Shown here in pieces: positions 3,159 through 52,826 of a DNA stretch of 52,826 nt. The DNA comes from Candidatus Saccharimonadota bacterium (GTDB lineage Bacteria; Patescibacteriota; Saccharimonadia; Saccharimonadales; JAXHNE01): positions 1 through 52,826 of the forward strand of contig JAXHNE010000007.1 in assembly GCA_034520885.1 (NCBI GenBank). Direction: 5' to 3'. Position 1 is the first letter of the stretch; each line of letters opens with the position of its first letter. The translations under genes were made by a program, and so were the position numbers. Below the pieces are notes generated by a model. That model saw nothing but the letters and a program-made list of their open reading frames with translations, searched no databases and was not told the DNA's origin.

Positions 3159-3183
3159 AATGTAAGCGGTCAGCTCGAGCTCG

Positions 3184-4747: not shown

Positions 4748-4917
4748 GCCGGGTAGCTTGTCTCGTACCCGGAACAATGAACGCCGCTTTAAAAAAACGA
4801 CGTAGTAAGCGGTGACGTCGGTTCAAAAGGCCGCCATACCACACGACCCGGCTTCGCCCGGACGTGCGCCGTGTATGTACGCTATGCCAAACAAAAACCG
4901 CCCAAAACCGGCTAATC

Positions 4918-4926
4918 TGTTAAAAT
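4918..4926 (+). promoter_or_regulatory. extended -10 (TGTTAAAAT), probably the original alaS promoter, now separated from alaS by the GIY-YIG insertion
   Basis: Motif read directly. Removing 4938-5256 would place an ATG 10 nt downstream of it. Confidence 0.4.
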
Positions 4927-4937
4927 GGGGCGGAAGA

Positions 4938-5256
4938 TCCCGTAGTGAGCCCTTGATCACATTATGTTCTATGTTTATTTACTACAATCAGAGGAGCGCT
5001 ATAGGATATACGTCGGCAAAACGACCGATCTTAAAAGACGCGTGAAAGAACATAATGCAGGGCAAAATTCTTCGACAAAATCATACGGACCATGGACGCT
5101 TATATTTTACGAAGCTTACATAAATAGTAAAGATGCTGACAGGGGGAAAGGTACTTGAAGACGACACAAGGACGGCAAGCAATTCACAGAATGCTAAAAT
5201 GTCATCTGGAGAACTATAAAGAAATGAATTTTGCATATCAAGGATCTACTACGGGA
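4938..5256 (+). mobile_element. 319-bp mini-element: GIY-YIG ORF bounded by 20-nt imperfect terminal inverted repeats
   Basis: TCCCGTAGTGAGCCCTTGAT (4938-4957) against ATCAAGGATCTACTACGGGA (5237-5256), 16/20 complementary by eye. Lies between a promoter and the alaS ATG. Confidence 0.55.
4964..5158 (+). CDS. small GIY-YIG nuclease family protein, probably frameshifted (the -1 frame continues to TGA 5257-5259)
   Basis: N-terminal FYVYLLQS..IYVGKTTDLKRRVKEHN GIY-YIG signature. After a G5 run (5142-5146) the -1 frame reads ERYLKTTQGRQAIHRMLK, matching the C-termini of ORFs 49582.. and 50029... Confidence 0.7.
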   Translation: MFYVYLLQSEERYRIYVGKTTDLKRRVKEHNAGQNSSTKSYGPWTLIFYEAYINSKDADRGKGT

Positions 5257-35335: not shown

Positions 35336-35454
35336 CCCCTCGTTGTAAGCGAGGTGCTCCTTGCCCGGCATGTTTTCAGAGTAAGCGTAGTCTGTAATCA
35401 GATTACGCTAACATCCAGAAAACGTGCGGGGTAGCCAGCTGAGCTAACAACCCA
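35336..35454 (-). pseudogene. displaced, interrupted copy of the tRNA-Val 5' half (acceptor 5' strand + D-arm + anticodon arm) with a 72-nt hairpin-forming insertion in the D-loop
   Basis: 35336-35359 (24 nt) and 35432-35454 (23 nt) are identical to the matching parts of tRNA 35091..35167. The insertion is 35360-35431. No matching 3' half. Confidence 0.8.
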
Positions 35455-36137: not shown

Positions 36138-36154
36138 TGGTGGCTCCGCACAGA
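36138..36154 (-). repeat. 17-nt direct copy of the tRNA-Phe 3' end (scar)
   Basis: TGGTGGCTCCGCACAGA is identical to 36285-36301. Confidence 0.7.
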
Positions 36155-36399: not shown

Positions 36400-36496
36400 G
36401 AGCCTTGTGTCCCTGGGACACCATGATAATTCTAAATCTCATTCGCTCTTCAAGCCCTTTTCTACCTCCGCTGTCTAGCGGATGAGCTACAGAGCC
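36400..36496 (-). pseudogene. degenerate, rearranged copy of the tRNA-Phe 5' half
   Basis: GAGCTACAGAGCCACGCT (36484-36501) is identical to 36348-36365. GCTCTTCAAGCC (36445-36456) is the anticodon arm. GAGCCTTGTGTCC (36400-36412) is followed by its own inverted copy. Confidence 0.65.
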
Positions 36497-39668: not shown

Positions 39669-39709
39669 CTTTTAATACGAACTTATTATTAATCTGCTGG
39701 AATTAATAA

Positions 39710-40420
39710 CTATAACAAATGCACGGTTCTTATACTTCTACACCAGAATCCATAGTATTCAGCATCCATTTCCGATTTATCTCTTGGAACCATTAGAGCT
39801 ATGCCTTCAGGTTTCTGAGATTTATTCTTTAAGTCAGGATATGTATCCCATTCTTCACGAGTTATCAAACCAACAACCTCATATAAATTTTGCTTTCTAA
39901 AAACTCCATTAACATGCTTTATTAAGTTTGCGGCTGCAGTGACAAACTTCATGCTTGTTGATTCCGTAATCGAATCTAGTGAGTATTCGACAGACAATGC
40001 GTTGCTATGATTACCTATAAAGCTATTCTTTACTACTCCATCTCTCATTATGCAAACATCAGGAACGCCTAATGCAGCACAGATTGTTTTGCGTGTATCA
40101 TTCAGCTGGTCAGACAATATAAAAACCCCCGAACTTCTTCTGGTCGTATGTATGTCAATTATGTAATCTGGCTTAAACTCTTCTAATTGAGCCTCTAGTC
40201 TGGATAACTCAGTAGTTTCATGGTTTTCAAGTCCAGTATTGTAGATGCGATTCAAGTCACTATCGATAAAACGCTTATTTTTCTCATGTGCCCGTACGTT
40301 CCCTATAAAAAGCTGAATATATTTTTGTAGTTCAGGATGAGCCTTAATGAATGCATTATGCAAGTCTATTCCGTAAACCTCATCACCGTGAATCGCTGCA
40401 ACTATACCTACTTTTTTCAT
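39710..40420 (-). CDS. succinylglutamate desuccinylase/aspartoacylase (AstE/AspA, M14-like) family protein (cassette)
   Basis: Family motifs AIHGDEVYG, RFIDSDLNRIY, IIDIHTT. TGTTATGAT (40427-40435) 6 nt before the ATG. Confidence 0.7.
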   Translation of the reverse strand: MKKVGIVAAIHGDEVYGIDLHNAFIKAHPELQKYIQLFIGNVRAHEKNKRFIDSDLNRIYNTGLENHETTELSRLEAQLEEFKPDYIIDIHTTRRSSGVFILSDQLNDTRKTICAALGVPDVCIMRDGVVKNSFIGNHSNALSVEYSLDSITESTSMKFVTAAANLIKHVNGVFRKQNLYEVVGLITREEWDTYPDLKNKSQKPEGIALMVPRDKSEMDAEYYGFWCRSIRTVHLL

Positions 40421-40528
40421 TAACTAATCATAACAAATAAGTTATTTAGAGTCCTAGTTTGGTCAAAGGCCAAAAATCATAAAACGTGGTTTTACTTGGG
40501 TCATGTCCTGATTGTAATTAAGTGCTGT

Positions 40529-40807
40529 TTAAGCGGCTTTTTGTTCTAGTTTTGAAATTCGTTTGTTATGATCTTCGAGCTGATTGTCTATAGCCTCGTT
40601 CGATGTGTCTAGCGCCTCTCCAACAGAAGCTGCAAGATCATCAATTTTTGTGCTTAATTTTTTATCAAGTTTGGAAATATTTTTTTCAAGACTAGAAATA
40701 TCCTTTTCTAGGTTAGTGATATCTTCTTTGGTAGCTAAATCAGAGGTCTGCTGAGATACCGTGGTTGCAATAAACTGCTTTAAGTCTTGGATAGTGTCGT
40801 CATTCAT
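40529..40807 (-). CDS. small coiled-coil protein of unknown function (cassette)
   Basis: 92-aa ORF with heptad-like LEKDISSLEKNISKLDKKLSTKIDDL. Has a frameshifted paralog at 39286..39524. Confidence 0.6.
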   Translation of the reverse strand: MNDDTIQDLKQFIATTVSQQTSDLATKEDITNLEKDISSLEKNISKLDKKLSTKIDDLAASVGEALDTSNEAIDNQLEDHNKRISKLEQKAA

Positions 40808-40831
40808 AGGCCTACTTTATCATAGTAAGTT

Positions 40832-40952
40832 TGGTGCCGGATAGCTGCATGCCATGGCGACATGCCGTGGGCATATTTCTAACCGCTTCATCAGATAAGG
40901 TCGACATATATAAGCTCAAAGAACTTGTGAATCAGTTTAATTTGTCAGCAGA
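40832..40952 (-). repeat. R1 spacer module, copy b (ends ..GGCACCA on the coding strand)
   Basis: TGGTGCCGGATAGCTGCATGCCATGGCGACATGCCGTGGGCATATTTCTAACCGC... Lies 3' of the stop of 40992..41717. Confidence 0.75.
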
Positions 40953-40991
40953 ATTACTACAAAATTCTTGATTCACCTAACTCACTATTAC

Positions 40992-41717
40992 TTAGGCGAA
41001 AATGAGATATCGGAGTGCTATTATCGTTAACGCAACGGCTATGACTGTCCTGAACTTACTCTGAGGTATTTTATCGACGACTCTTTTGCCGATATACGAA
41101 CCAAAAAGCACGGTGGGTACGGAAATGAGCGCCGCAATCAAAAGAGTGGGAGTTAATTCTATTTCTGACTGCAAATAGCCGACCAAACGTCCGCCGTCAA
41201 TGATGAGACCAATCGCGCCGGCAGTAAACAAAAAGACTTCCTTTTTTAGGTCAAAGGCCGAGAGGAACGTTGCCCTAATGACCCCCTGCACGCCAAAAAC
41301 CGCCGCGGATAACCCTGTCAAACTACCTCCGAGCACTGCCGTTTTATTGTTTTTGGGCAACTTCCATTCCGGGTTTCTGAGGATGTAGATAACGTAGAAA
41401 AGTATAAAAGCGCCGAGCAAACGTAAAACAATATCACTCGAAAAATCCGGCACTAAGCGTGATCCGATATAGCTCAGTATTAACCCCGGTATGCCGAACA
41501 GCGCGATAAGCCGCCAGTTAATGCCGCTCTTGAAAAAGTACATTTTACCGAAGTTTCCTACCGCGTGAACAATGCCAGTAAATAGCAGTACCGGATTAAA
41601 TCCGTAGAATAAAGCCAAGACGGGCACCATAATCGTTGATGTCCCAAAACTTGTAATAGTGCCGACCGCCGAGGCAAAAAATGCCAACAAGACGAGTAGC
41701 ATAATTTCAATAATCAT
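40992..41717 (-). CDS. TauE/SafE (TSUP) family anion exporter (cassette)
   Basis: 241 aa, ~7-8 TM helices, internal duplication typical of the TSUP family (GTSTIMVP.. / GVQGVIRATFL..). Confidence 0.7.
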   Translation of the reverse strand: MIIEIMLLVLLAFFASAVGTITSFGTSTIMVPVLALFYGFNPVLLFTGIVHAVGNFGKMYFFKSGINWRLIALFGIPGLILSYIGSRLVPDFSSDIVLRLLGAFILFYVIYILRNPEWKLPKNNKTAVLGGSLTGLSAAVFGVQGVIRATFLSAFDLKKEVFLFTAGAIGLIIDGGRLVGYLQSEIELTPTLLIAALISVPTVLFGSYIGKRVVDKIPQSKFRTVIAVALTIIALRYLIFA

Positions 41718-41807
41718 ACTTTTATTCTAGCCCAATATAAGCGAAAAGCCCTACACGGGGCTTAAAAGTCGGAACCCGTCCCGTTTGAAAACGCCTTAAC
41801 GTATTCA

Positions 41808-41905
41808 CGATGCCGCCTGCCGGCATACTTCTAACCGCAAGTCCTGAGAAAGTTGATGTATATAAACTTAAAGAACTTGTGGAGGAGTTTAATTTATCGA
41901 GCGAC
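41808..41905 (-). repeat. R1 spacer module, copy c (diverged)
   Basis: CGATGCCGCCTGCCGGCATACTTCTAACCGC..GAGAAAGTTGATGTATATAAACTTAAAGAACTTGTG. The last 40 nt nearly match 43556-43595. Confidence 0.7.
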
Positions 41906-41920
41906 CTAGTTTAGGTAAAT

Positions 41921-42520
41921 TTAATCAACAGTATCTATGAGCCATACCCCGCCGGAGCGTTTTTCACCATGCCTATTCATAGCTTCGAATATTTTATCTA
42001 CACTAACAAGACGCCACTTAGGGTGTTCGGGACTTGGGTCAATAATTCGTATTTTGTCGCCCACAACTCTGTCGAAGACGACAACGTGTCCCCAATCCTT
42101 TTCTCTGTCGTCAACTAGAACTCCATGATTAAAGCAAAGTAGCGCGTCTGTGTTATTTGCTTCAATCTCACTTAGAGTATTTATCAACTTCTCAGAATCG
42201 CCAATTTCTGAAATAGGCTTTATTTTCAGTCGTAAAGGTATATCAAGATTTTTGAAAGCTGTGTTTGGCTCAAATTCTGGCAAGTATATACGCGTTCCGT
42301 AGCCCGCTGGCGGTTTTTCCTCAGAAGTGCGAACCTTATAAAATAAACCAGCCCTTTCTGGCCTAACGATTAACCCAAGATGATACCCGATTTCCTCGGC
42401 AGGAAGTAGAGGTATGCCATTCTTATACATAATCATCTGAAAACAAGTAGGGACACAACATGATGCCTGTTGAGTAAATGGTATGTAACGAGAGTCATCT
42501 GGTGTTGCCTGTAGTTTCAT
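41921..42520 (-). CDS. putative papain-like/C39-like cysteine peptidase (cassette)
   Basis: Candidate Cys (SCCVPTCFQMIMY) and His (WGHVVVFDRV) catalytic pair. Start set to ATG 42520 because ATG 42532 lies inside the TGATATGAT -10 (42528-42536). Confidence 0.4.
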   Translation of the reverse strand: MKLQATPDDSRYIPFTQQASCCVPTCFQMIMYKNGIPLLPAEEIGYHLGLIVRPERAGLFYKVRTSEEKPPAGYGTRIYLPEFEPNTAFKNLDIPLRLKIKPISEIGDSEKLINTLSEIEANNTDALLCFNHGVLVDDREKDWGHVVVFDRVVGDKIRIIDPSPEHPKWRLVSVDKIFEAMNRHGEKRSGGVWLIDTVD

Positions 42521-42534
42521 TTGTTTAATCATAT

Positions 42535-42589
42535 CAAAGAAGTTAGTGAGAGTCCTGTTTGATCAGAGGCCAATAACAAGCAAAAAACG
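42535..42589 (-). repeat. R2 spacer module (55 nt identical to 44201-44255)
   Basis: CAAAGAAGTTAGTGAGAGTCCTGTTTGATCAGAGGCCAATAACAAGCAAAAAACG, read in both places. Confidence 0.85.
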
Positions 42590-42667
42590 TTTGGGTTGTA
42601 TAGGTGCGCTACCTAGCTACGAAAGTAAAACTTTACTTTTTAGGGTTTTACAAAAAAGAGGCAAATT

Positions 42668-43378
42668 TCAAGTTTTTTGAAATACTGCCCAAATATGGTT
42701 ACAGTTATATTCATTGCCAAAGAAAGTTGCCTTCTTTGGAACACGTTCTAGTGTAACTAGATTGAGATCGCTATAAAATTGCTTGACCTCGTCCTCGGTA
42801 AAAGCTTTTTCATATTTCCCATTAACGGGATGAATGAAGCTGCCAGCATCAGGACCAGGATGCTTTTTAATCATTTCCTTATGAAACTCATCGTCGGTAG
42901 AGAGCAAGTAGACCATTAAATAGCCGCCCGGTTTTAAGACCTGAATTAAATTACTGAGTGCAGCTTCACGACCCTCGATACTTTCAATATCAGTAGAACC
43001 AAAACAATCAATTGCAAAATCCAAGCTATCTGGCTGAATCGTAAAAGGCTTCGTGACATCCTGCACTATAAAATCAGTCTGGTCCGAAACGCCCACTTGT
43101 TCTGCTCGCCTTTTGGCTTCTTCAATAGCGGTTGGAGAAAAATCCAGTCCCGTAGCAATTACACCTTTCATGGCAAGGCCAAGAACATTTCGGCCTTTAC
43201 CGCAACACATCTCCAAACCTTTAAGTTCGCTTAGTTCTTTACCCTGACTTTTTAGCCACTCTAGAAACTTAGTAACCCCGCTTGAAGCGTCATTAGAATC
43301 CATCTGCAGTAAAACTGTTGGTTTTTGGTGTTCTTTGTCCCAGCGTTCTTGTTGTTCTTCGTGTGTAATTGTCTGCAT
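42668..43378 (-). CDS. class I SAM-dependent methyltransferase (cassette)
   Basis: Motif I LEMCCGKGRNVLGLA, motif II-like DFAIDCFG, post-I D (GLDFS). TGTTATACT (43385-43393) 6 nt before the ATG. Confidence 0.8.
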   Translation of the reverse strand: MQTITHEEQQERWDKEHQKPTVLLQMDSNDASSGVTKFLEWLKSQGKELSELKGLEMCCGKGRNVLGLAMKGVIATGLDFSPTAIEEAKRRAEQVGVSDQTDFIVQDVTKPFTIQPDSLDFAIDCFGSTDIESIEGREAALSNLIQVLKPGGYLMVYLLSTDDEFHKEMIKKHPGPDAGSFIHPVNGKYEKAFTEDEVKQFYSDLNLVTLERVPKKATFFGNEYNCNHIWAVFQKT

Positions 43379-43517
43379 GAACTGAGTATAACAAAGAGGC
43401 GACTAGTAAACGTTACGTATAATTAAAACCTGAATTAACTCAAAAACGCCGATTTACCAGGATGTTTTATAGGGGTAGTGTTCCGGTTAAATTCTACGAA
43501 GCTTTAGCGAAGTAGTT

Positions 43518-43605
43518 TGGTGCCGCCTATCAGGCATATTTCTAACCGCTGCACCTGAGAAAGTTGATGTATATAAACTTAAAGAGCCTGTGAGTCAGTT
43601 TATCC
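43518..43605 (-). repeat. R1 spacer module, copy d (ends ..GGCACCA on the coding strand)
   Basis: TGGTGCCGCCTATCAGGCATATTTCTAACCGCTGCACCTGAGAAAGTTGATGTATATAAACTTAAAGAG... Abuts the stop codon of 43605..44186. Confidence 0.75.
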
Positions 43606-44186
43606 TAGGCAGTGATTTGTTCATTAAACGGTTTAGTGCCGTCCAGAACTAAGTCAGCGAACTCTTTCGGGTCATCCCTCTTGATATAGCCTTCTTCTTT
43701 CTCGTACCACTTCTGCCACATTTCCTTTATCTCATCATCTGGCTTTCCGTCCTGACCTTTATCACGTTCAAAGCCACGCTGTATACAGATATCTAAAGGT
43801 GTATCAACAAATATACCAAAAGATAGATATGGCCTGAACTCTTTGCGCAACGAACTGACGCCTTCTAAAATCATTATATTAGTAACTGGCTGGTTAACGA
43901 CCGGCTCTGGATTATGTGATTCCCACCATTTGGAGCGTGGGTAGTTTAAAGATTTAGATCCATTTTTAATTGGCTCAAATACTCGTTCAATTACTAGTGG
44001 CCACCAGTTCTCTGGGTTGTCCCAACCAGCAAAGTCATCTGTATGGATAACTTCTGCGTCGAGTTGCTTTGCAACCAATTTTGCAAGCGTTGATTTACCA
44101 GACCCGCCATGTCCGTCTATAGATACTATTTTGAGACTCCCGCAATTTGGTTGCTTTTTGCTTAATTCTTTCTCTATTCTGTTCAT
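43605..44186 (-). CDS. P-loop nucleoside/nucleotide kinase-like protein (uridine kinase-like; cassette)
   Basis: Walker A IDGHGGSGKSTLAK. Start set to ATG 44186 because ATGs 44195/44198 lie inside the TGGTATGAT -10 (44194-44202). Confidence 0.55.
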   Translation of the reverse strand: MNRIEKELSKKQPNCGSLKIVSIDGHGGSGKSTLAKLVAKQLDAEVIHTDDFAGWDNPENWWPLVIERVFEPIKNGSKSLNYPRSKWWESHNPEPVVNQPVTNIMILEGVSSLRKEFRPYLSFGIFVDTPLDICIQRGFERDKGQDGKPDDEIKEMWQKWYEKEEGYIKRDDPKEFADLVLDGTKPFNEQITA

Positions 44187-44200
44187 TAAACACATCATAC

Positions 44201-44255
44201 CAAAGAAGTTAGTGAGAGTCCTGTTTGATCAGAGGCCAATAACAAGCAAAAAACG
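44201..44255 (-). repeat. R2 spacer module (55 nt identical to 42535-42589), followed by the AAAAACGCCGATTTAC hairpin module
   Basis: Direct comparison of the two stretches. Confidence 0.85.
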
Positions 44256-44298
44256 CCGATTTACTCGATGTTTCACAGAAGTCTGGTTATTACTGCAG

Positions 44299-44356
44299 TT
44301 TGGTTTACCATGAGCGAATGAAATGAGTCGAATGGTGCCGTGGAGGGGACTGTTCC
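44299..44356 (-). repeat. R3 spacer module followed by a decayed tRNA-Gly 3'-end copy
   Basis: TTTGGTTTACCATGAGCGAATGAAATGAGTCGAA, then TGGTGCCGTGGAGGGGACTGTTCC (about 17/24 identical to the tRNA-Gly 3' end TGGTGCGGGTGAGGGGACTCTAAC by eye). Confidence 0.6.
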
Positions 44357-44449
44357 ATTTTGTTGATAAGCTCGGCAATCCGCCGCAGGCGGACTCGTGC
44401 GAACCAAAATACAAAGGTTTAGTAGAACAGTACAACCTTAGTTCATATT

Positions 44450-45031
44450 TTATTTAGCAGGCAATATCATTTCGGTTTGTGGAAGTGAAGTCATGTAGTC
44501 AGGCCTGCCTTCTTCTTCTGGGACTATTGCGTTGGTTCTTTTAAAACCGTAATGTTCATAAAAGCCAATAGCCTTATCGTTATAGCTAATCACTTCTAGG
44601 TAAATGTCGTTATCTCTGCCCAGAACATTAAGGGCTTGGTGCATTAGTTTTCCGCCAACTCCCGTTCCTTGTACTTCCGGCTCTACATACATTGCGCTGA
44701 TCATCTTTCGGCCTCGCTCATCAATCTGGAGGTCTGTATACCCGACCACTTTGCTGTCAATCTTTGCTACATAGATTCCTATTCCCGCGTCGTCGTCCTT
44801 AGCAGACTGCTCCTTTAGGTGCGCAACTCTTCGCGGTACAAATTCTCCGTTCATGCCTTGTGCGTTAACCCGAATATCTTCCTCAGTAATACCAAGTTCA
44901 GCGTTAGGGTAAGCTTCTAGCCAAGCCCTGTCTCTGATGTCACAAATCGTTTCAGCGTCTTCGGGTTTTGCTCGTTCTATTTCTACTGGCGGTTTTTCTG
45001 TTTCTGGCTTCGGTGTAGTTACTTCACTCAT
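44450..45031 (-). CDS. GNAT-family N-acetyltransferase (cassette)
   Basis: Motif A VEPEVQGTGVGGKLMHQAL and YEHYGFK motif B region. TGGTATTAT (45038-45046) 6 nt before the ATG. Confidence 0.85.
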   Translation of the reverse strand: MSEVTTPKPETEKPPVEIERAKPEDAETICDIRDRAWLEAYPNAELGITEEDIRVNAQGMNGEFVPRRVAHLKEQSAKDDDAGIGIYVAKIDSKVVGYTDLQIDERGRKMISAMYVEPEVQGTGVGGKLMHQALNVLGRDNDIYLEVISYNDKAIGFYEHYGFKRTNAIVPEEEGRPDYMTSLPQTEMILPAK

Positions 45032-45132
45032 AAACTAATAATACCAAAGAAGTTAGTTAGAGCCATAGTTTGGGTTGTATAAAAAAACGCCGATTTACTC
45101 GACGTTTCACAGGGGTCATTTTCTAAAATGTG

Positions 45133-45172
45133 TTTGGTTTACCATGAGCGAATGAAATGATTCGAATGGTGC
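45133..45172 (-). repeat. R3 spacer module, copy b (ends ..TTGCACCA on the coding strand)
   Basis: TTTGGTTTACCATGAGCGAATGAAATGATTCGAATGGTGC; nearly identical to 44299-44338. Confidence 0.75.
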
Positions 45173-45296
45173 AAGATAGTTGACCCTACGACGCTAAAGC
45201 TTTGAAGGGCTCAGCGCATTTCAGACATCGGCAATAGAAGAGCATAACAATCAAAAACTCAGTGACTTGATAAAGTTGTTTGGACTTTCGGCAGAT

Positions 45297-45815
45297 TTAA
45301 TTTAGCAAGAACTTCTCTTCAAGCACAGTATTCTCATTCTGGTCTACAATCTTGACCCTCACCCTAACATCCTCTAATACATAGTTATTATCTTCTGGAT
45401 GTTGCCGCGGTACCTTGTCACGAATTTCATCTTTTTCTTTTATGGCTTCATTGACAGATTTTGCCGAAAGATTTTGAGCAACAACTTTATAAGAATAGCT
45501 GTCTCCTTTAAGTCGGCTATATGCAAGTTCAGCACTAAATATTTTCTTATACTGATTCCCTGACTTTGTATCCGCCAAAATCTGCTTAGTCTTAGCTACG
45601 GTTTCTGAGGCAAATCCTTCTTCGTTATCAAAAGCCTCGTTGTCCCAATCAAACTGAAATTCACTGATATAATCCGCAAGAATTTGTGAGTTACCAGTAA
45701 GGTCACTTCGTTCTGGTATATCAACTTTGGCTAAATTTTCTGCAAGTTGCACTAAGTCATCTGACGAGTTAACGGCTTCATCAATGTTATTAATGAATGA
45801 TTTTTCCTGGTTCAT
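45297..45815 (-). CDS. hypothetical protein (cassette)
   Basis: 172-aa ORF. TGATACTAT (45822-45830) 6 nt before the ATG, directly preceded by hairpin GACCC..GGGTC + T-run (45831-45850). Confidence 0.6.
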   Translation of the reverse strand: MNQEKSFINNIDEAVNSSDDLVQLAENLAKVDIPERSDLTGNSQILADYISEFQFDWDNEAFDNEEGFASETVAKTKQILADTKSGNQYKKIFSAELAYSRLKGDSYSYKVVAQNLSAKSVNEAIKEKDEIRDKVPRQHPEDNNYVLEDVRVRVKIVDQNENTVLEEKFLLN

Positions 45816-45893
45816 AAGTTCATAGTATCAAAAAAGACCCTAATTGGGTCTAAATGTTTAAAAGCTCTCTGAGCGAAAACTTTTGGGTCGTAA

Positions 45894-45995
45894 TGGTGCG
45901 AGTGAAGCCTGTCCGCTTTTGGAGGGAGACTCAAAAACTCTTAACCGCGACCCGGTTAAGAGCTAGCTCGACGATTGATAATTTTTGAAGAGGCC
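45894..45995 (-). repeat. R4 spacer module, copy a (begins with the tRNA-like TGGTGCGAGTGA)
   Basis: Shares TGGTGCG[A/G]GTGA and CTCGA[C/A]GATTGAT[A/T]ATTTTTGAAGAG with 46791-46868. Its internal ~26-nt segment is in the opposite orientation. Confidence 0.65.
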
Positions 45996-46086
45996 GAGAG
46001 TTGAGAATCTATTTCAGCCCAGATCAAAAAGAAAACCCCACGTGGTAGTGGGGCTATCTTTTTGGTGCAAGATAAAGAGTGATAAT

Positions 46087-46407
46087 CTAACTCTTTTTTG
46101 ATCGGGCAGCAATTGCAAAATCCATGAAGTACTTCTCTAAACTATGATCTACATTGTCTGTCAGTATCGAATTTGCGAATTGTTCACGTGCTATCAAGAG
46201 TTCATAGGGGTCTTTTCCTTGTGCAGCCCATGCTCTAACAGTTGCGTTTATTAAATCCATACCGCGATGAAAAGCAGTCGTCATGCGTCGCTCATTTCCT
46301 TTTCGCTTGCCATTCAAAGCCCTGCCGACTTCAGATCCAATATTACCCAACTGCCAAAAAACAGAATGAGAAGCCCAAGCAGCCTCATCGAATACATGCT
46401 TACTCAT
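46087..46407 (-). CDS. hypothetical protein, second gene of a two-gene cassette
   Basis: ATG 46407 overlaps the stop of the upstream ORF in the sequence ATGAGTAA. 106 aa, helical, no recognisable motif. Confidence 0.55.
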   Translation of the reverse strand: MSKHVFDEAAWASHSVFWQLGNIGSEVGRALNGKRKGNERRMTTAFHRGMDLINATVRAWAAQGKDPYELLIAREQFANSILTDNVDHSLEKYFMDFAIAARSKKS

Positions 46408-46741
46408 GCACAATCTCCCCAATAATTTCTATGATTTTTTTGCGTACTTCCTTGTCGAGTACATCTTTGGAGGCATTGTCTTGAGAAGGTCTTATATTGA
46501 TCATTGAGTCGAACTCTACAAAATCATCAGTCCCAAAATCATCTGGGTGTAGATTTATGCCCCACAAGTCATTCTGTCTGGAGCCTTGTTTTAGTAATTC
46601 TTGCTCACCATCGTAGTGCATCGGCATATCTAAAATAACGATTCGTTTCTCAATATCAACATCGGCTTTGACGAGCTCTCCAAACATTTTATCAGCCATT
46701 TCTTTAAGCTCATTAACTGATATACTCTTCACGATTTTCAT
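46400..46741 (-). CDS. hypothetical protein, first gene of a two-gene cassette
   Basis: 113-aa acidic ORF. TGTTATACT (46748-46756) 6 nt before the ATG. Confidence 0.6.
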   Translation of the reverse strand: MKIVKSISVNELKEMADKMFGELVKADVDIEKRIVILDMPMHYDGEQELLKQGSRQNDLWGINLHPDDFGTDDFVEFDSMINIRPSQDNASKDVLDKEVRKKIIEIIGEIVHE

Positions 46742-46790
46742 AAGATCAGTATAACAGACGACACCTGGTTAGTATGTCTTATGGGATATT

Positions 46791-46868
46791 TTGGTGCGGG
46801 TGATGAGACCCGCCAAAAGGTGGACAGGCAACTAGGGGCTCTCGAAGATTGATTATTTTTGAAGAGAC
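46791..46868 (-). repeat. R4 spacer module, copy b (begins with TGGTGCGGGTGA, identical to the first 12 nt of the tRNA-Gly 3' end)
   Basis: Direct comparison with 47927-47938 and with 45894-45995. Confidence 0.65.
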
Positions 46869-46927
46869 CAGGGGGTTAGATCTAGGCCCTTCGACAGGCT
46901 CAGGGTCATTCGACTAATAAAAACGCC

Positions 46928-47090
46928 CATGGTTTACCATCTTTCGACCATGAGGCTCAAGATCGAATGGTGAGCGAATGAAATGAGTTGAATGGTGCCG
47001 GATAGCCGGCATATTTCTAACCGCTACACCAGAGAAGGTTGATTTTTATAAGCTCAATGAATTAATCGGCCAATTCGATCTTGCAGCTTA
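46928..47090 (-). repeat. R3 (copy c) + R1 (copy e) spacer modules
   Basis: ..GAATGGTGAGCGAATGAAATGAGTTGAATGGTGCCGGATAGCCGGCATATTTCTAACCGCTACACC... Lies directly 3' of the stop of 47095..47664. Confidence 0.7.
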
Positions 47091-47094
47091 CTTA

Positions 47095-47664
47095 CTAAGC
47101 TAATAAGTGGGGGTTTGTTTTTTGAAGCTCTATAAACTGGTCTAGGTATGGCTTTAAGTATTGTGATTGTTCAATTTTAGAGCGGAACTTATTCTCCCAA
47201 CCCTTCTGCGTAAGATTATACTTTTTCCATAGAGCAATATCTCCATGAATTAGCGTGAAGGCTGGCATTAATTTATCTAGACCGTATATGAATTTACTTT
47301 CTTCATCAGCCATTTTTTCATACTGCTCAATAAGCTCAGCAAAATTGCTAGTGAGCTCATCGTTTTTTAGTTTCAGTAAGGCTTGGTGCTCTTTATTGGA
47401 TTTCTCAGCTACTTGTTTATCATCAAGTGGGAACGCGTCTCCTGCGTAAACTTCTACTAAATCGTGGATGAGTGCGTATTTTATTACTAGGCTTAAATCT
47501 AAAGGTAGATTGTCTTTAGAAATGATAAGCCACGCCGCCATCGCAAGGTTATAAGAATGTTCGGTATCGTTTTCAGGCCTATTTAATTTCGGAATTGGTA
47601 TATTGCGTTCTACTGCTTGAAAATCAATTAAGATACTAATGAAGTTAGTAATGTTTACTGCCAT
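47095..47664 (-). CDS. HD-domain phosphohydrolase (YfbR-like 5'-nucleotidase family; cassette)
   Basis: H..HD..D pattern (TEHSYNLAMAAW, LIHDLVEVYAGD). TGTTAGACT (47671-47679) 6 nt before the ATG. Confidence 0.75.
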   Translation of the reverse strand: MAVNITNFISILIDFQAVERNIPIPKLNRPENDTEHSYNLAMAAWLIISKDNLPLDLSLVIKYALIHDLVEVYAGDAFPLDDKQVAEKSNKEHQALLKLKNDELTSNFAELIEQYEKMADEESKFIYGLDKLMPAFTLIHGDIALWKKYNLTQKGWENKFRSKIEQSQYLKPYLDQFIELQKTNPHLLA

Positions 47665-47744
47665 TACATTAGTCTAACAAAAAGAGACCTGTTCCGCCTC
47701 TTTAGTTAGAAACTATACTGTTTCAAAATTCTTTGGGGTATTCA

Positions 47745-47766
47745 TGGTGCGGGTGAGGGGACTCTA
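47745..47766 (-). repeat. exact 22-nt direct copy of the tRNA-Gly 3' end (att-like scar)
   Basis: TGGTGCGGGTGAGGGGACTCTA is identical to 47927-47948. Confidence 0.85.
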
Positions 47767-47890
47767 CCTACATGTCAAAAACCTTTGCTTTTTGCTCGCA
47801 GGCCGCGGCTCGCGGTCTCGCTGAATTGCTCGACAACGCTCCGCCCGTTAGAGTCCCACGAAACTAAAGCAGTTTAGTTTCTCTCACTCC

Positions 47891-47916
47891 AAGAAAAAAG
47901 CCCTACACAGGGTAGG
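47891..47916 (-). terminator. terminator-like hairpin + T-run directly after tRNA-Gly
   Basis: On the minus strand, CCTAC CCTGT GTAGG then GCTTTTTTCTT. Same design as after tRNA-Phe. Confidence 0.5.
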
Positions 47917-47926
47917 ACGTTTTTCT

Positions 47927-48047: not shown

Positions 48048-48177
48048 GCTTCCTTGGCCTGGCAAGGATTCGCTCCTATGTCATTCGATCATACCATGTC
48101 GATATGACGTGGCATGGCCGTATCGAATGATACGGTAACAGCTGCCGCGTCATTCGACACGATTCAGCTACACCCGC
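48048..48177 (-). pseudogene. displaced, interrupted copy of the tRNA-Gly 5' half with two insertions in the D-arm region
   Basis: Anticodon-arm-like GCTTCCTTGGCCTGGCAAGGATTCGCTC (48048-48075), AACAGCTG (48137-48144) and CAGCTACACCCGC (48165-48177) are colinear with the real tRNA. The insertions carry TCATTCGA / TCGAATGA motifs. Confidence 0.65.
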
Positions 48178-48630
48178 TCGTCACAGTACGGCAACTTTTT
48201 TGCCACACCAAGACGTTACTTATGGTTTGGCAGTCATGTTTGCCGGCTGTTCCTCTTTCCGATCAAAAAATCCTCTTTTTGATCGGGGGACAGAACCTTT
48301 ATGTTTATAAAAATTCTGTCCCTGAATGTTTTACCAAGTCGGGGGTAGATTATAGCGGAGGTGAAAGGGGCGGGCAAGTGCTAAAACAATCACTAGTCGG
48401 AAGAGTCCTCAACTTTGGGCATATGACCCAAAACCCGCACAAGTCCATAATTGTTTTGAACGCACGAATCACCGAACTATAAATACACAAAAATCAAATT
48501 TAAAGCGGATTTAAATCTGATTTTTTATGATATGATACTTATGTCGGTCACTTCACGAAATTTGGCCGAACACGGGAGAAACCGAGGTCTCCCCTGTTGT
48601 ATAAATTACATAATAATAAAAGGACGAACT

Positions 48631-49474: not shown

Positions 49475-49506
49475 TTGTCTGGTTGTTTGCTACAATTAAC
49501 TCCGAT

Positions 49507-49539
49507 GGCGCTGTGGCGGAATGGTAACGCAAGGGTCTG
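49507..49539 (+). repeat. displaced copy of the tRNA-Cys 5' half (positions 1-34, ending inside the anticodon)
   Basis: GGCGCTGTGGCGGAATGGTAACGCAAGGGTCTG matches 49822-49854 with one mismatch (49533). Confidence 0.85.
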
Positions 49540-49821
49540 TCGTACCTACGGTAGATCTCCCGAAGGGAGACAAAACCCCACATGTATCACGTATACGTAT
49601 TAATGAGTAAAAAAACCGGGCGTTTGTATATCGGTAGTACAGCTGATGTTGTAAATAGGCTTAGACTTCACAACAACGGTAGGGTAAAATCTACCAAGGG
49701 TTATAGACCGTGGAAGCTACTTGAGCACTCTAGCTGTGATACACGATCCGAAGCCACGAGGCTTGAGCGACATTTAAAGTCTGGACAACAGCGAGAACGA
49801 CTCAAGAAAAAGTATAACCAT
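49540..49821 (+). mobile_element. 282-bp insertion carrying only a GIY-YIG ORF, bracketed by tRNA-Cys 5'-half copies
   Basis: See the flanking repeats 49507-49539 and 49822-49854. Stable hairpin TCTCCCGAAGGGAGA at its 5' end. Confidence 0.6.
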
Positions 49822-49842
49822 GGCGCTGTGGCGGAATGGTAA
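49582..49842 (+). CDS. small GIY-YIG nuclease family protein (86 aa); the last 7 codons overlap tRNA-Cys
   Basis: YHVYVLMSKKTGRLYIGSTADVVNRLRLHN..GYRPWKLL..EATRLERHLKSGQ GIY-YIG/URI signature. Confidence 0.8.
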   Translation: MYHVYVLMSKKTGRLYIGSTADVVNRLRLHNNGRVKSTKGYRPWKLLEHSSCDTRSEATRLERHLKSGQQRERLKKKYNHGAVAEW

Positions 49843-49896
49843 CGCAAAGGTCTGCAAAACCTTTTTTTGCCGGTTCAAATCCGGTCGGCGCCTCCA
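49822..49896 (+). tRNA. tRNA-Cys (anticodon GCA), CCA encoded
   Basis: 75 nt. Acceptor GGCGCTG/CGGCGCC (one G-U pair), anticodon arm AAGGT CTGCAAA ACCTT, T-arm GCCGG TTCAAAT CCGGT. Confidence 0.9.
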
Positions 49897-49909: not shown

Positions 49910-49996
49910 GCGCGGGTGGTGGAATTGGTAGACATAGGAGACTTAAAATCTCCGGCCTAAAACGGCGTGCGGGTTCAAGTCCCGCCCCGCGCACCA
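49910..49996 (+). tRNA. tRNA-Leu (anticodon TAA), CCA encoded
   Basis: 87 nt. Acceptor GCGCGGG/CCCGCGC, anticodon arm GGAGA CTTAAAA TCTCC, long variable arm, T-loop GGTTCAAGTCC. Confidence 0.92.
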
Positions 49997-50082
49997 TTAA
50001 ACTTCGCTATCGCTTCGCTTAATTAGCTATGCACTATACCTATATTCTTAAAAGCATTTCACAAGAGGGTGCTATTTACATT
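49981..50082 (+). repeat. direct repeat copy 1: last 16 nt of tRNA-Leu(TAA) + spacer + first ~18 codons of the GIY-YIG ORF
   Basis: About 100 nt with only a few mismatches to 50366-50467 (offset 385 nt). Confidence 0.85.
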
Positions 50083-50277
50083 GGCAGTACTTCTGATTTG
50101 AAAAGGCGGATTGGTAAACATAACGCCAACCCGGACAGTAAACATGTTGATAAATATCGGCCTTGGAAAATAGAAAGTTATTTTGCTTTTTCGGATAAGA
50201 GAGAAGCTGAAAATTTTGAGCGTTATCTTAAATCAAGTTCTGGCAAATCTTTTCTAAAAAAGAGGTTGATATCATAA
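50029..50277 (+). CDS. small GIY-YIG nuclease family protein (82 aa)
   Basis: HYTYILKSISQEGAIYIGSTSDLKRRIGKHN..YRPWKIE..EAENFERYLKSSSGK signature. Confidence 0.8.
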   Translation: MHYTYILKSISQEGAIYIGSTSDLKRRIGKHNANPDSKHVDKYRPWKIESYFAFSDKREAENFERYLKSSSGKSFLKKRLIS

Positions 50278-50365
50278 AGAGGTTGATATCATACAGTTTT
50301 AAGCAAGCGATGACGGAGTTTAATAACGGCCGGAGCGAAAGGTAAGCGTAGCAAAGCGGAGTTTA

Positions 50366-50467
50366 CCCGCCCCGCGCACCATTAAACTTCGCTATCGCTT
50401 CGCTTAATTAGCTATGCACTATACCTATATTCTTAAAAGCATTTCACGAGAGGGCGCTTTTTACATT
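50366..50467 (+). repeat. direct repeat copy 2, preceded by a decayed tRNA-Leu T-arm (GCGGAGTTTACCCGCC)
   Basis: CCCGCCCCGCGCACCATTAAACTTCGCTATCGCTTCGCTTAATTAGCTATGCACTATACC.. is repeated from 49981. Confidence 0.85.
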
Positions 50468-50470: not shown

Positions 50471-50601
50471 TCGAAAACCCGCACTATGACCGCGGAGATG
50501 AACGCCTTATCCACAGATAGCTCGTTAGCTCGGTTGACTTTTAACCAAAACCACGATAAGTTTTATTTAACTTCACAAAATAAATTTAAAAAAGTGAAAC
50601 A

Positions 50602-52692
50602 ATGTTCCAAAAGAAAAGAACTACCAAAACCAGCAAAACCAAATCCAGCAAAACTCGTAAGCGTGCACCGGCCAAAAAAACCCGGAAAGGTTTACTGAAA
50701 AACCACAAAGGTTTTATCCCGTTGCGCGGTAAATCTCGTAAGTCAAAAAAGATAAAATTTGGCTCAAAAACTTCCAAAAAAACCAAGATGCTTGGCCTGG
50801 CTGGCGTATTGGCATTTGGCGCGGTAGGATCGTATTTATTGTTTTTTAGTTCCGCGCAAGTGGCGAACTCGAAGGTATATAAAAACGGTGTCCTGACAAA
50901 AATTGATCCATCCGGGCATACTATAACAAATACTGCTTCAGATGGTACGACCTTTGGAAGAGTTGAATTACCGGGCTTGATTGGTTATGCATGGGACTTG
51001 AGTTGGTCAAATGACGGCAGAAGGTTAGCGGTTTTCACTAAAACAGAGTCTGGACACGATGCCATGGTATTCATCTATGGCGGAGATTATACGCTGGAAA
51101 ATTCGTTTACTATACCAAGAGGAGATGACTATAATAGTGTTGGGATTGGCAGTATACAGTGGAACTCAAATGGTGATCAACTGCTTATAGGTTTAAGGAG
51201 TATAGGTTCTGGGATCGAGTCGTATGAGGCGATTATTGCCAACAAAGAAGGAAATATAACTTACAGAAATAAACTACAGCAGAATGATCACACCACATAC
51301 AGATCAGTTACTTGGATAGACCAAGGTAACAAAATTGCATATTTTGGAACTGGTGGAATTCGAACAATGTTTATTGACGGGAGTGCAGACCAGCTGGAAG
51401 TTCCGACTAGTCAGATACCAACAGCATTAGAGAGCCCAGAAGTCTTCCAGAATAGGATTTCCCTAATGCGATCTTCTAGGACGGGTGATGACGTTGCCTT
51501 TATATTCAATAATAACGTGTTTGTTATGGATACTAAGGATTTCGAGATTGAGCAAGTATCCTTTTCTGATAACGCTACTTCAGATAAACTCACCTGGTCA
51601 CCTGATGGAAAGCTCATTAATTATAGTCGACGATTAGAGGTGAGTCCAAATGCATCAAGCCAAGTTATTAACCTTTCTAAAGGAACAGATGAGGCCTTCG
51701 GAGGTCCTTTTAGTGCGGGTCACAGCTGGCGACCTATCTCCAATACCTCTCAACAAGTAGACTTCAACGGTGATGGCTTCAGCGATATATTCTTTTACGA
51801 ACCGGGCAGTGCAAAAGATAGTGTTTGGTACGGCTCTGATGGAATGAGCAGTAAGCGGCCCGCAACATTAGGACAGTTTGATGTCATTAACAGCGACAAC
51901 ACCCCAAGCATCAATGTAATCGGCACAAGCTACAAACCCATCCACGGCGACTTCAACGGTGATGGCTACACCGATATCTTTTGGTACGGCCCCGGTTCAA
52001 CCAATGACAGTATTTGGTACGGTGGCGCTGGGGATGGTGAGTTTACTCGTCATACTGCAGTGAACGTCGCCGGAAGTAACTACAACCCAGTTGCTGGCGA
52101 CTTCAACGGCGACGGCTTCTCCGACATATACTTCTATGCTCCCGGCGGAACAACCGACTACATTTGGTACGGCCAAAACAACAAAGATGGTAACTTTGAC
52201 AGTAAGCAGAAGAATATCAGTGGTGACTATAAGCCAGTGTCCGGCGACTTCAACGGCGACGGCTACGGCGATATATTATGGTATGCCCCGGGACAAGCGG
52301 CTGACTACGTTTGGTATGGAAGTGGTCAAAAGAATAACTTCACGAGTCGCCCAATAAGCGTCAACGTCAGTGCATACGAGCCATTCGGCGGCGACTTCAA
52401 CGGCGACGGCTTCTCCGACATATACTTCTATGCTCCCGGCGGAACAACCGACTACATTTGGTACGGCAAAAACAACAAAACCGGTAACTTTGACAGTAAG
52501 CAGAAGAATGTCAGGGGTGACTATAGGCCAGCATCCGGCGATTTCAACAGTGACGGCTACACCGATATCTTCTGGTACGGCCCCGGTTCAACCAACGATA
52601 GCATTTGGTATGGCGGCCCGGGAGATGTTCAGTTCGAACTGTTCACTGATGTAAATGTTGGTGGAGACGCGAAGCCGATACCTGGCAGATAA
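50602..52692 (+). CDS. large surface protein: Lys-rich N-terminal tail, TM anchor, beta-propeller-like region and six FG-GAP/VCBS-type repeats
   Basis: TM MLGLAGVLAFGAVGSYLLFF. Repeats of the form GDFNGDG[FY][ST]DI[FY][FW]Y.PG...D.[IV]WYG. 696 aa. Confidence 0.8.
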   Translation: MFQKKRTTKTSKTKSSKTRKRAPAKKTRKGLLKNHKGFIPLRGKSRKSKKIKFGSKTSKKTKMLGLAGVLAFGAVGSYLLFFSSAQVANSKVYKNGVLTKIDPSGHTITNTASDGTTFGRVELPGLIGYAWDLSWSNDGRRLAVFTKTESGHDAMVFIYGGDYTLENSFTIPRGDDYNSVGIGSIQWNSNGDQLLIGLRSIGSGIESYEAIIANKEGNITYRNKLQQNDHTTYRSVTWIDQGNKIAYFGTGGIRTMFIDGSADQLEVPTSQIPTALESPEVFQNRISLMRSSRTGDDVAFIFNNNVFVMDTKDFEIEQVSFSDNATSDKLTWSPDGKLINYSRRLEVSPNASSQVINLSKGTDEAFGGPFSAGHSWRPISNTSQQVDFNGDGFSDIFFYEPGSAKDSVWYGSDGMSSKRPATLGQFDVINSDNTPSINVIGTSYKPIHGDFNGDGYTDIFWYGPGSTNDSIWYGGAGDGEFTRHTAVNVAGSNYNPVAGDFNGDGFSDIYFYAPGGTTDYIWYGQNNKDGNFDSKQKNISGDYKPVSGDFNGDGYGDILWYAPGQAADYVWYGSGQKNNFTSRPISVNVSAYEPFGGDFNGDGFSDIYFYAPGGTTDYIWYGKNNKTGNFDSKQKNVRGDYRPASGDFNSDGYTDIFWYGPGSTNDSIWYGGPGDVQFELFTDVNVGGDAKPIPGR

Positions 52693-52711
52693 ATTTAAAA
52701 AGAGTAAAACA

Positions 52712-52826
52712 ATGTTCCAAAAGAAAAGAACTACCAAAACCAGCAAAACCAAATCCAGCAAAACTCGTAAGCGTGCACAGGCCAAAAAAGCCCGGAAACG
52801 TTTATTGATGAAAAATCGCAAAGGTT
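52712..52826 (+). CDS. 5' end of a tandem paralog of 50602..52692 (cut by the window edge)
   Basis: MFQKKRTTKTSKTKSSKTRKRAQAKKARKRLLMKNRKG. The first ~70 nt and ~20 nt upstream are identical to the 50602 gene. Confidence 0.7.
   Translation, partial: MFQKKRTTKTSKTKSSKTRKRAQAKKARKRLLMKNRKG

Follow-up and report, generated by a model that had tools for sequence, protein, structure and literature searches.

Why is a tRNA-Cys gene preceded by a second copy of its own 5′ part, and why does a small nuclease gene fill the space between the two? This question is raised by positions 49507-49896 of a 52,826-nucleotide (nt) contig of a Candidatus Saccharimonadota bacterium (JAXHNE010000007.1; the whole analysed stretch is called the window here). 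At this locus, an open reading frame (ORF) for a GIY-YIG nuclease lies between a broken upstream copy of tRNA-Cys(GCA), termed the decoy, and the intact gene. An earlier reading of the bare sequence (the original prediction) had proposed that such proteins provide the homing-type mobility function of minimal elements that target tRNA genes and carry a replacement tRNA half. Our analysis leads to a related answer: judged from its sequence and that of its relatives, the stretch is probably a complete and apparently active miniature selfish element of homing-like character, placed at the 5′ edge of a tRNA gene. The observations behind this reading are the anatomy of the locus, its recurrence, its presence/absence polymorphism, the DNA-type covariation of its hairpins, and the affiliation of its protein. 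Any particular chemistry of the element is much less well supported than its selfish, homing-like nature.

Anatomy of the tRNA-Cys locus and its nuclease

The duplication of the tRNA-Cys 5′ part is real. A direct repeat of 35 nt (49505-49539 and 49820-49854, 97% identity) comprises the first 33 nt of tRNA-Cys plus two leader bases. Its sole mismatch, at 49533, is a G in the upstream copy versus an A in tRNA-Cys (A28 to G), and a C at position 42 of the decoy tail matches this change (ACCCC, versus ACCTT in tRNA-Cys). Gap-tolerant alignment of the first 46 nt of tRNA-Cys with the 420-nt upstream region gave a score of 70, compared with a maximum of 34 in 200 shuffles. This score, together with the dozens of independent genomes that display the same architecture, excludes a chance origin of the repeat. 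The intact tRNA-Cys downstream was called by both ARAGORN and Rfam.

The predicted breakpoint at the wobble base G34 does exist, but it marks where a conserved hairpin pair was inserted, not where the ORF is joined. Past the 31-nt insert, the upstream copy resumes with tRNA-Cys positions 35-41 (CAAAACC); it therefore comprises tRNA-Cys 1-41, cleanly interrupted between G34 and C35. The ORF meets the decoy at about tRNA position 41 and the intact tRNA-Cys at +1. As had been predicted, a hairpin stands ahead of the ORF, namely the second member of the pair, and the 86-codon ORF runs into the intact gene, which it overlaps by 21 nt (six codons and the stop). A search for membership in defence-system or phage families returned nothing significant. 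Coordinates of all features are listed in Table 1.

Table 1. Features of the tRNA-Cys locus and of related units and relics in the window
Feature	Position	Strand	Remarks
Decoy, tRNA-Cys nt 1-33 through wobble G34	49507-49539	+	Begins exactly at tRNA +1; one mismatch (49533)
Hairpin pair, 31 nt, between decoy G34 and C35	49540-49570		Same position in 58 other loci; stem covariation without wobble pairs
Hairpin A	49540-49555		Weak in the window copy
Hairpin B, TCTCCC-GAA-GGGAGA, TCTCCCGAAGGGAGA	49556-49570		Part of the hairpin pair
Decoy tail CAAAACC, tRNA-Cys nt 35-41	49571-49577	+	Followed by CCAC and ATG
Gene for 86-amino-acid (aa) GIY-YIG nuclease, Slx1/UPF0213 branch, catalytic domain only	49582-49842	+	Last 21 nt within tRNA-Cys
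Resident tRNA-Cys(GCA), intact	49822-49896	+	Identical in three related metagenome contigs without GIY-YIG ORF
tRNA-Leu(TAA), usual neighbour of tRNA-Cys	49910-49996	+	Target of second element family; ARAGORN, Rfam
Second-family element, 3′ side of tRNA-Leu	49997-50381	+	Leader, ORF, inverted repeat, tRNA 3′-end copy
Second-family conserved leader	49997-50028	+	Inverted-repeat partner at 50297-50324
Second-family ORF	50029-50277	+	Shortened by 17-nt tandem duplication (50259-50292) creating a stop
tRNA-Leu 3′-end copy, 16 nt	50366-50381	+	End of second-family element
Second tandem second-family copy, truncated (leader and first 54 nt of ORF)	50382-50467	+	Repeat analysis
Third GIY-YIG unit	4937-5257	+	ORF from 4964, frameshifted near 5143, end about 5257
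ORF-less relic upstream of tRNA-Val	35336-35453	-	tRNA 1-22 (35453-35432), 72-nt insert, tRNA 23-46 (35359-35336)
ORF-less relic upstream of tRNA-Phe	36445-36496	-	tRNA 1-14, 16-nt hairpin TCCGCTAGACAGCGGA, about nt 17-40
ORF-less relic upstream of tRNA-Gly	48049-48177	-	tRNA 1-12, 13-21, 22-43; 21-, 59-, and 5-nt inserts with palindromes

The ORF product matched the Pfam GIY-YIG family (PF01541) with E = 2e-16 (60 bits versus a cutoff of 22.6). Residues Y16, G18, R26, H30, N31, and E62 were invariant, and Y5 nearly so, across 31 relatives of the protein. Where the ratio of non-synonymous to synonymous substitution rates (dN/dS) was computable, it was about 0.06; synonymous sites were saturated between loci and non-synonymous differences amounted to about 0.15. 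These values indicate strong purifying selection on the ORF. The closest solved relatives were UPF0213 proteins (1zg2, E = 4e-12; 1ywl, 2e-10) and structure-specific endonucleases of the SLX1 type (1e-7); over both groups, E ranged from 4e-12 to 1e-6. The match to I-TevI was weak (E = 1e-3 over 32 residues), and the homing-endonuclease model TIGR01453 reached 17 bits versus a cutoff of 56. The Pfam scan returned the GIY-YIG catalytic domain alone, i.e. neither a DNA-binding domain, nor the C-terminal RING/PHD-type domain of eukaryotic SLX1, nor any further Pfam domain. By these comparisons, the nuclease appears to resemble bacterial UPF0213 rather than SLX1 proper.

The family is large, with 5,269 cluster representatives at E <= 1e-10 for a profile based on the ORF. 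Many database members carry 20-50 extra N-terminal residues, which in P0002, P0006, and P0023 read as translated decoy plus hairpins; these extensions are probably due to start codons mis-called through decoy and hairpins. Likewise, in the alignment of relatives, many C-termini read as translated tRNA 5′ ends and some N-terminal extensions as a translated tRNA half plus hairpin.

Recurrence, hairpin pairs, and empty sites

Scanning one genome per species yielded 224 relatives of the ORF, of which the best 80 loci were retained for all locus counts. Carriers were mainly metagenome-assembled genomes of Patescibacteria (the candidate phyla radiation, CPR), with some Bacteroidota. A same-strand tRNA adjoined the ORF relative in all 80 loci, and the ORF stop was located between -22 and +56 nt from the tRNA +1 in about 78 of them. 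In about 72 loci the target was tRNA-Cys(GCA). The others were tRNA-Ser(GCT), tRNA-Met(CAT), found in cultured Flavobacteriia (related copies in L064 and L072), and tRNA-Arg, found in other Bacteroidota. Most loci also contained an upstream tRNA copy starting at +1. By a strict criterion, an upstream 5′ pseudo-copy was present for 50 of 77 ORF-adjacent tRNAs, compared with 5 of 116 other tRNAs from the same loci (Fisher p = 9e-21); in this test, which had been set beforehand, the proposed association of small GIY-YIG ORFs with tRNA genes and partial tRNA duplications was borne out. Four of the five remaining pseudo-copies accompanied tRNAs beside additional GIY-YIG ORFs, and the fifth belonged to a second tRNA-Cys in L058. 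Tandem ORFs occurred in L006, L051, L053, L056, and L079. The arrangement was identical in 24 contigs of one species.

The hairpin pair recurs with similar precision. In 58 tRNA-Cys loci, an insert of 30/31 nt is located exactly at 34/35 of the upstream copy; CAAAAC comes next, and ATG begins 3-12 nt after it. Two copies of one 15-16-nt hairpin unit, inverted relative to each other, make up the insert; the unit has the form TC-NNN-C / triloop / G-NNN-GA, with the loop TNC in the first hairpin, GNA in the second, and GATC at the centre of the pair. Where the hairpins are bulged, the variant of one is the reverse complement of that of the other. Among 25 standard copies, 98.7% of the stem cells were paired, with 48 two-sided changes and not a single one-sided or G-T change. 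None of the 300 stem cells held a G-U pair, which favours pairing at the DNA level; an RNA structure was therefore rejected for the hairpins. The strictly Watson-Crick covariation, together with the GNA triloops, indicates hairpins at the DNA level, or else palindromes that template switching keeps perfect. Folds of the window's copy taken alone were not significant.

Other positions are used as well. About 15 loci have a hairpin pair between C11 and C12 in their upstream copy, further pairs lie in T-loops of pseudo-copies downstream of the intact tRNA, and some units are nested in other units at TCTC^CCG (L070 and L076). Every tRNA-Cys hairpin site has the form [G/C]^CAA. Insertions there occurred without target duplication and were confined to tRNA pseudo-copies. 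In tRNA-Ser loci, the site is again 34/35 (TTTG^CTAAAC), and Bacteroidota relatives possess a different, single long hairpin at 21/22. The window contained one other matching hairpin, which corresponds to chance level; the units are not dispersed.

We also noted pseudo-copies of tRNA-Cys (about nt 22-76, some nearly full-length) 10-200 nt past the intact gene in L009, L012, L018, L020, L025, and L030, and likewise 10-200 nt after the gene in L036, L045, L066, L068, and L075. Each is interrupted by a hairpin pair at 34/35, sometimes with a second one in the T-loop, and in several loci the pairs upstream and downstream of tRNA-Cys are nearly identical.

Close relatives of the locus were identified by a metagenome scan for the exact tRNA-Cys sequence; a metagenome scan with the 99-aa upstream neighbour protein gave no relatives. 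Three contigs (L082, L083, and L084) share a tRNA-Cys identical to that of the window and the same order of tRNA-Gly (minus strand), tRNA-Cys, and tRNA-Leu(TAA). None of the three contains a GIY-YIG ORF. In L084, a gene, a TATAAT box, and tRNA-Cys follow each other with no element at all, so that the empty site anticipated by the original prediction exists and the conserved target is polymorphic for the presence of the element. L082 carries only 24 nt from the 5′ part of another tRNA-Cys type, located 59 nt upstream of tRNA-Cys. An ORF remnant in the 59 nt ahead of this gene in L082/L083 is not supported, since the tblastn match rests on tRNA-encoded residues.

Some further differences among these contigs were observed. 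In L083, an HNH endonuclease gene (4820-5455, minus strand) lies on the opposite strand just upstream of tRNA-Cys, preceded by a reversed fragment resembling the tRNA-Cys anticodon arm, which suggests that a second kind of nuclease gene uses the tRNA-Cys site. The same contig has a 457-nt insert with its own ORF (5455-5911) between tRNA-Cys and tRNA-Leu(TAA). The spacing of these two tRNA genes is 13 nt in the window and 33 nt in L084; in L082 they are directly adjacent.

Where the upstream copies come from was addressed by comparing them with the resident tRNAs. Across the 80 loci, their similarity to the resident tRNA extended from full identity down to copies that clearly belong to another tRNA-Cys type. 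D-stem pairing was kept in 48 of 57 upstream copies, in 18 of them through a different, compensated D-stem; at least these 18 copies therefore stem from another functional tRNA-Cys type and not from decay in place. In Mantel tests, ORF and hairpins tracked the upstream broken copy slightly better than the resident 5′ half (r = 0.09-0.16), and L082 and L051 likewise favour ORF and hairpins going with the upstream copy. The upstream copy also correlated with the resident tRNA (r = 0.335), and no correlation with the neighbouring tRNA-Leu was seen for the similarities of ORF and hairpins. Along the positional mismatch profile, the gradient was non-significant (P = 0.08), and acceptor-strand matching of downstream pseudo-halves was ambiguous as to an imported 5′ half. 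For the idea of a carried replacement half, the indications diverge: ORF and hairpins covary, weakly, with the upstream broken copy and not with the functional 5′ half, and L068 suggests the opposite.

A proposed homing-like element and its alternatives

A selfish homing-like cycle would proceed as follows. Presumably without a promoter of its own, the unit would probably be transcribed from the tRNA promoter as a 5′ leader of the tRNA; promoter-like -10 boxes, read from the sequences, precede the decoy +1 in many loci. We propose that the nuclease, which has no DNA-binding domain, recognises hairpin- or cloverleaf-forming DNA of the tRNA gene and not a long sequence, with putative cuts at the loop sites [G/C]^CAA in the D-loop, the anticodon loop, and the T-loop. 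Once cut, a naive tRNA-Cys gene would be mended by copying a gene that bears the element, with no homology other than the tRNA sequence to draw on, the left repair arm being the 5′ part in the decoy and the right one the intact tRNA. Repair through tRNA homology alone would account for the duplicated 5′ part and for repeats that end at the tRNA boundary. The hairpin pair would fill the cut site of the decoy and make it uncuttable, and it would also interrupt the direct repeat, through which the element might otherwise be lost by deletion. There is probably a single, essential gene for tRNA-Cys, so that the only surviving outcomes would be those in which one gene remains intact. If an occupied locus were cut and repaired time after time, this would yield the tandem ORFs and nested hairpins that were observed, as well as the pseudo-copies with hairpins that lie on either side of the tRNA.

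The homing-type function named by the original prediction gains from the empty site and the tRNA association, but the enzyme is a catalytic-domain-only member of the Slx1/UPF0213 branch and not of the I-TevI type. Several other points weigh against a homing-like cycle. The cleavage sites are deduced from hairpin positions alone, and the intact tRNA beside the nuclease retains every one of them. Synonymous saturation combined with a conserved protein fits long-term maintenance but could equally reflect a benefit to the host. Perfect hairpins also arise without selection, by template-switch correction of quasi-palindromes. The Mantel signals that tie the ORF to the upstream copy are weak, as their r values indicate. 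Simple homing predicts a native left end, but the upstream acceptor strand was fully compatible with the resident 3′ strand in only 12 of 54 cases, and at least one locus, L068, has instead the look of a resident tRNA that was split at 34/35 when a composite flanked by hairpins, with a tRNA of its own, came in. Finally, no vector became apparent: protein searches of phages and plasmids gave weak, unrelated matches, and the hairpin-pair pattern had no match in viral contigs.

Much of the same evidence could be accommodated by a transposon-like element, in which the hairpin pair would be a cis-acting end or a non-autonomous miniature, the nuclease a transposase that inserts at [G/C]^CAA without target duplication, much as single-strand hairpin elements (IS200/IS605, REP/RAYT) do, and the tRNA duplications a secondary rescue. 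The clean insertions at three CAA sites of tRNA-Cys copies and at TCTC^CCG (L070 and L076) would fit, as would the build of each unit as an inverted hairpin pair including reverse-complement bulge variants, the GNA/TNC triloops with the strict Watson-Crick pairing that DNA hairpins should show, and the solo units without an adjoining ORF in D-arms and downstream pseudo-copies. However, the units are restricted to tRNA pseudo-copies beside GIY-YIG genes, the single other hairpin of the window being at chance level; no right-end hairpin stands beside the ORF, Bacteroidota relatives have a different single hairpin, and we know of no GIY-YIG transposase. On balance, we regard such an element as unlikely. 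The unit encodes no HUH Y1 transposase of the IS200/IS605 or REP-RAYT kind, the sole ORF being GIY-YIG. Improbable, too, in our judgement is a host-beneficial or domesticated system, in which nuclease and structured leader would be part of the tRNA operon and serve repair or protection of a highly transcribed, integration-prone tRNA gene or control of tRNA output, with the upstream half as a functional leader. The patchy distribution with an empty site beside an identical tRNA-Cys, the foreign-type upstream halves, the tandem arrays and nested hairpins, and the frameshifted and truncated copies within one window are hard to reconcile with such a role, as is the occurrence of the same design on different tRNA species and in distant phyla; hairpins without G-U pairs also speak against an RNA leader. 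Some observations do agree with it, i.e. strong purifying selection with deep divergence, a very large family, a fixed position at the tRNA promoter, the identical arrangement in the 24 contigs of one species, and upstream copies that remain tRNA-like despite saturated synonymous sites in the ORF.

Two conventional explanations fare far worse. Partial tRNA duplications are a classical footprint of integrative elements, and the window also contains 3′-end copies of tRNA-Gly and tRNA-Phe, so that one might think of the remnant of an integrase-type island, or of a tRNA duplicated in tandem, in which the GIY-YIG ORF is a passenger by chance. Yet it is the 5′ portion that is duplicated, the 315-bp unit holds a GIY-YIG ORF and no integrase, and the recurrence statistics, with the same ORF-tRNA junction in 80 genomes, contradict a passenger; an attachment-site (att) remnant was thus rejected, and we rate this explanation as very improbable. 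That the anticodon loop carries a group I intron with its own endonuclease ORF deserves practically no credence. The classical group I intron of tRNA-Leu(UAA) also sits at 34/35, but Rfam gave no ribozyme or intron match at gathering or permissive thresholds, the ORF fills the 282 bp between the repeats, and a complete, uninterrupted tRNA-Cys follows; a group I or tRNA intron was rejected on these grounds.

Returning to the selfish homing-like reading, parallels exist among known systems. Mobile GIY-YIG ORFs of fungal mitochondria (e.g. in Allomyces atp6) reportedly arrive with a copy of the end of their target gene, leaving a functional gene and a displaced fragment, and may be considered the nearest architectural analogue. 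They differ in having a protein-coding target with a duplicated 3′ end, I-TevI-like proteins with DNA-binding domains, and no hairpin module. Enzymes of the I-TevI/Seg type have a C-terminal DNA-binding region that is absent from the all-catalytic 86-aa protein. The latter shares its minimal GIY-YIG core with UPF0213 proteins (BH0048, PDB 1zg2; EF2693, PDB 1ywl) and SLX1. SLX1 entries, however, are about 300 aa long, and the enzyme contains a RING-type domain and has SLX4 as its partner; for UPF0213 proteins, we know of no reported link to tRNA genes. Tyrosine-integrase islands and prophages likewise enter tRNA genes and leave them intact by duplicating a portion, but they encode an integrase, span kilobases, and usually duplicate the 3′ part, whereas the unit described here measures 0.3 kb, encodes a nuclease, and duplicates the 5′ part. 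REP/BIME-RAYT and IS200/IS605 systems resemble it in their short perfect DNA hairpins, often in inverted pairs, with one small nuclease gene, and perhaps in insertion by a short fixed motif without target duplication; they differ in their HUH Y1 transposases and genome-wide spread, as opposed to GIY-YIG and hairpins confined to tRNA pseudo-copies.

As the nearest functional analogue we regard SegB of phage T4, a free-standing GIY-YIG homing endonuclease in a tRNA gene cluster whose target is a conserved motif in the T-psi-C stem-loop of tRNA genes (PMC2330249). Here, too, a GIY-YIG gene stands among tRNA genes, and SegB spreads with flanking tRNA DNA; unlike the element in the window, SegB is encoded by a phage, recognises a site of 27 bp, and has no decoy half, hairpin pair, or target duplication (PMC2330249). 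The window protein also belongs to a different branch (Slx1/UPF0213). In the CPR, a 2024 survey of rRNA insertions described GIY-YIG ORFs in non-group I, non-group II insertions of rRNA genes, which were sparse and judged by the authors to lie outside spread by homing; tRNA was not mentioned (PMC11270868). These share with the tRNA-Cys element the phylum and the association of GIY-YIG with stable-RNA genes, but, unlike it, they are located inside rRNA genes (PMC11270868). We regard the tRNA-Cys element as a variant of homing-type selfish nuclease genes, a known kind, and there is a fair chance that its mechanism is new. Full-text literature, the coverage of which was incomplete, contained no bacterial description of decoy, hairpins, and GIY-YIG gene at a tRNA, and the three-part design does not seem to have been described before.

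For the small stand-alone GIY-YIG proteins (UPF0213, YhbQ/YazA-like), tRNA context, decoy, and hairpins offer a first concrete and testable hypothesis of function that covers a large part of the family. If mobile, the units, at about 0.3 kb, would be among the smallest autonomous elements and would illustrate how a nuclease without a DNA-binding domain obtains target specificity. They also matter for annotation, as they create tRNA pseudo-halves and cause N-terminally extended, mis-called ORFs such as P0002, P0006, and P0023, and they shape tRNA operon structure in Patescibacteria. With related copies in cultured Flavobacteriia isolates (L064 and L072), experiments are feasible.

Other units, relics, and the cassette island of the window

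At least two families of GIY-YIG units, 0.3-0.4 kb in size and flanking tRNA genes, have members in the window, along with relics. The second family, a different GIY-YIG subfamily with members of 99-105 aa, is represented on the 3′ side of tRNA-Leu(TAA), where the ancestral ORF encoded 99 aa and ended at 50345. It closely followed a tRNA gene (25-160 nt) in five of seven contexts examined, namely tRNA-Leu(TAA), tRNA-Ser(GGA), tRNA-Tyr, tRNA-Met, and an odd tRNA-like call. In three of these five (L088, L089, and L093), a 14-18-nt copy of the 3′ end of the tRNA concerned is located about 20 nt past the ORF (7 nt past it in L093). The conserved leader and the 3′ end of the ORF form a 21-39-nt inverted repeat. 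By its placement and these copies, the second family appears to target tRNA 3′ ends; L082 and L084 are without such an element.

ORF-less units of about 130-230 nt were observed after tRNA-Leu(TAA) in L094-L099 (about 3067-3500), which belong to one Saccharimonadales-type species. Each unit ends in a tRNA 3′-end copy of about 15-20 nt, degraded in the second copy. The number of units varied, with one in L094, L095, and L097 and two in L096 and L098, i.e. a copy-number polymorphism at the strain level.

The third GIY-YIG unit is flanked by 21-nt inverted repeats (4937-4957 and 5237-5257), the right arm of which overlaps the alaS start codon. That every GIY-YIG ORF in the window sits in a unit of 0.3-0.4 kb with direct or inverted repeats, as the original prediction had it, holds for all three. 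Its suggestion of ORF-less 5′ pseudo-copies at tRNA-Val, tRNA-Phe, and tRNA-Gly was equally confirmed, by gap-tolerant alignment and direct reading, and the three relics follow the same design. The intact tRNA-Val lies 168 nt beyond its relic, a promoter-like TAGAAT is duplicated together with the tRNA-Phe relic, and related contigs are without the tRNA-Gly relic. All stages of decay are present in the window: besides the intact copy, there is one ORF with a frameshift, one that is truncated, and a set of three relics without any ORF.

Some smaller features adjoin these relics. An ORF of 122 aa (48114-48482, plus strand) overlaps both the relic of tRNA-Gly on the minus strand and the palindromes within it; Pfam gave no match for this ORF, which is possibly not a real gene. 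Short 3′-end copies of tRNA-Phe (17 nt, 36138-36154) and tRNA-Gly (22 nt, 47745-47766), both on the minus strand, are located 130-160 nt downstream of the genes. Each follows a terminator-like hairpin, a layout like that of the second GIY-YIG family without the ORF.

Directly downstream of tRNA-Gly(GCC) lies a cassette island (39700-47926, minus strand). Its boundaries bear progressively decayed tRNA-Gly 3′-end copies, with eight matches in the window versus about one expected (e.g. 47745-47759, 46792-46806, 45894-45908, and 44333-44347, minus strand), and the motif GCGGTTAGAAATATGCC...GGCA recurs within it. The island looks like the result of serial insertions at the tRNA-Gly 3′ end. A connection to the nuclease family, as had been suspected, is circumstantial: the island contains no GIY-YIG ORF, but the tRNA-Gly 3′-end copies at its boundaries follow the logic of the second family. 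A wider conjecture, which we hold to be doubtful, is that minimal GIY-YIG proteins of the Slx1/UPF0213 type are the mobility enzymes of an unrecognised class of bacterial elements. Such elements would recognise hairpin-forming DNA of tRNA genes by its structure and not by sequence, short perfect DNA hairpins would serve as cis-acting ends or immunity inserts, and the same logic would extend to ORF-less cassettes at tRNA 3′ ends, including the tRNA-Gly island.

Near the end of the window, a 117-nt stretch across the start of the gene for a 696-aa FG-GAP repeat protein (50582-50698) recurs with 93% identity directly after its stop codon (52692-52808), which suggests, from the sequence, a tandem FG-GAP paralogue beyond the window end.

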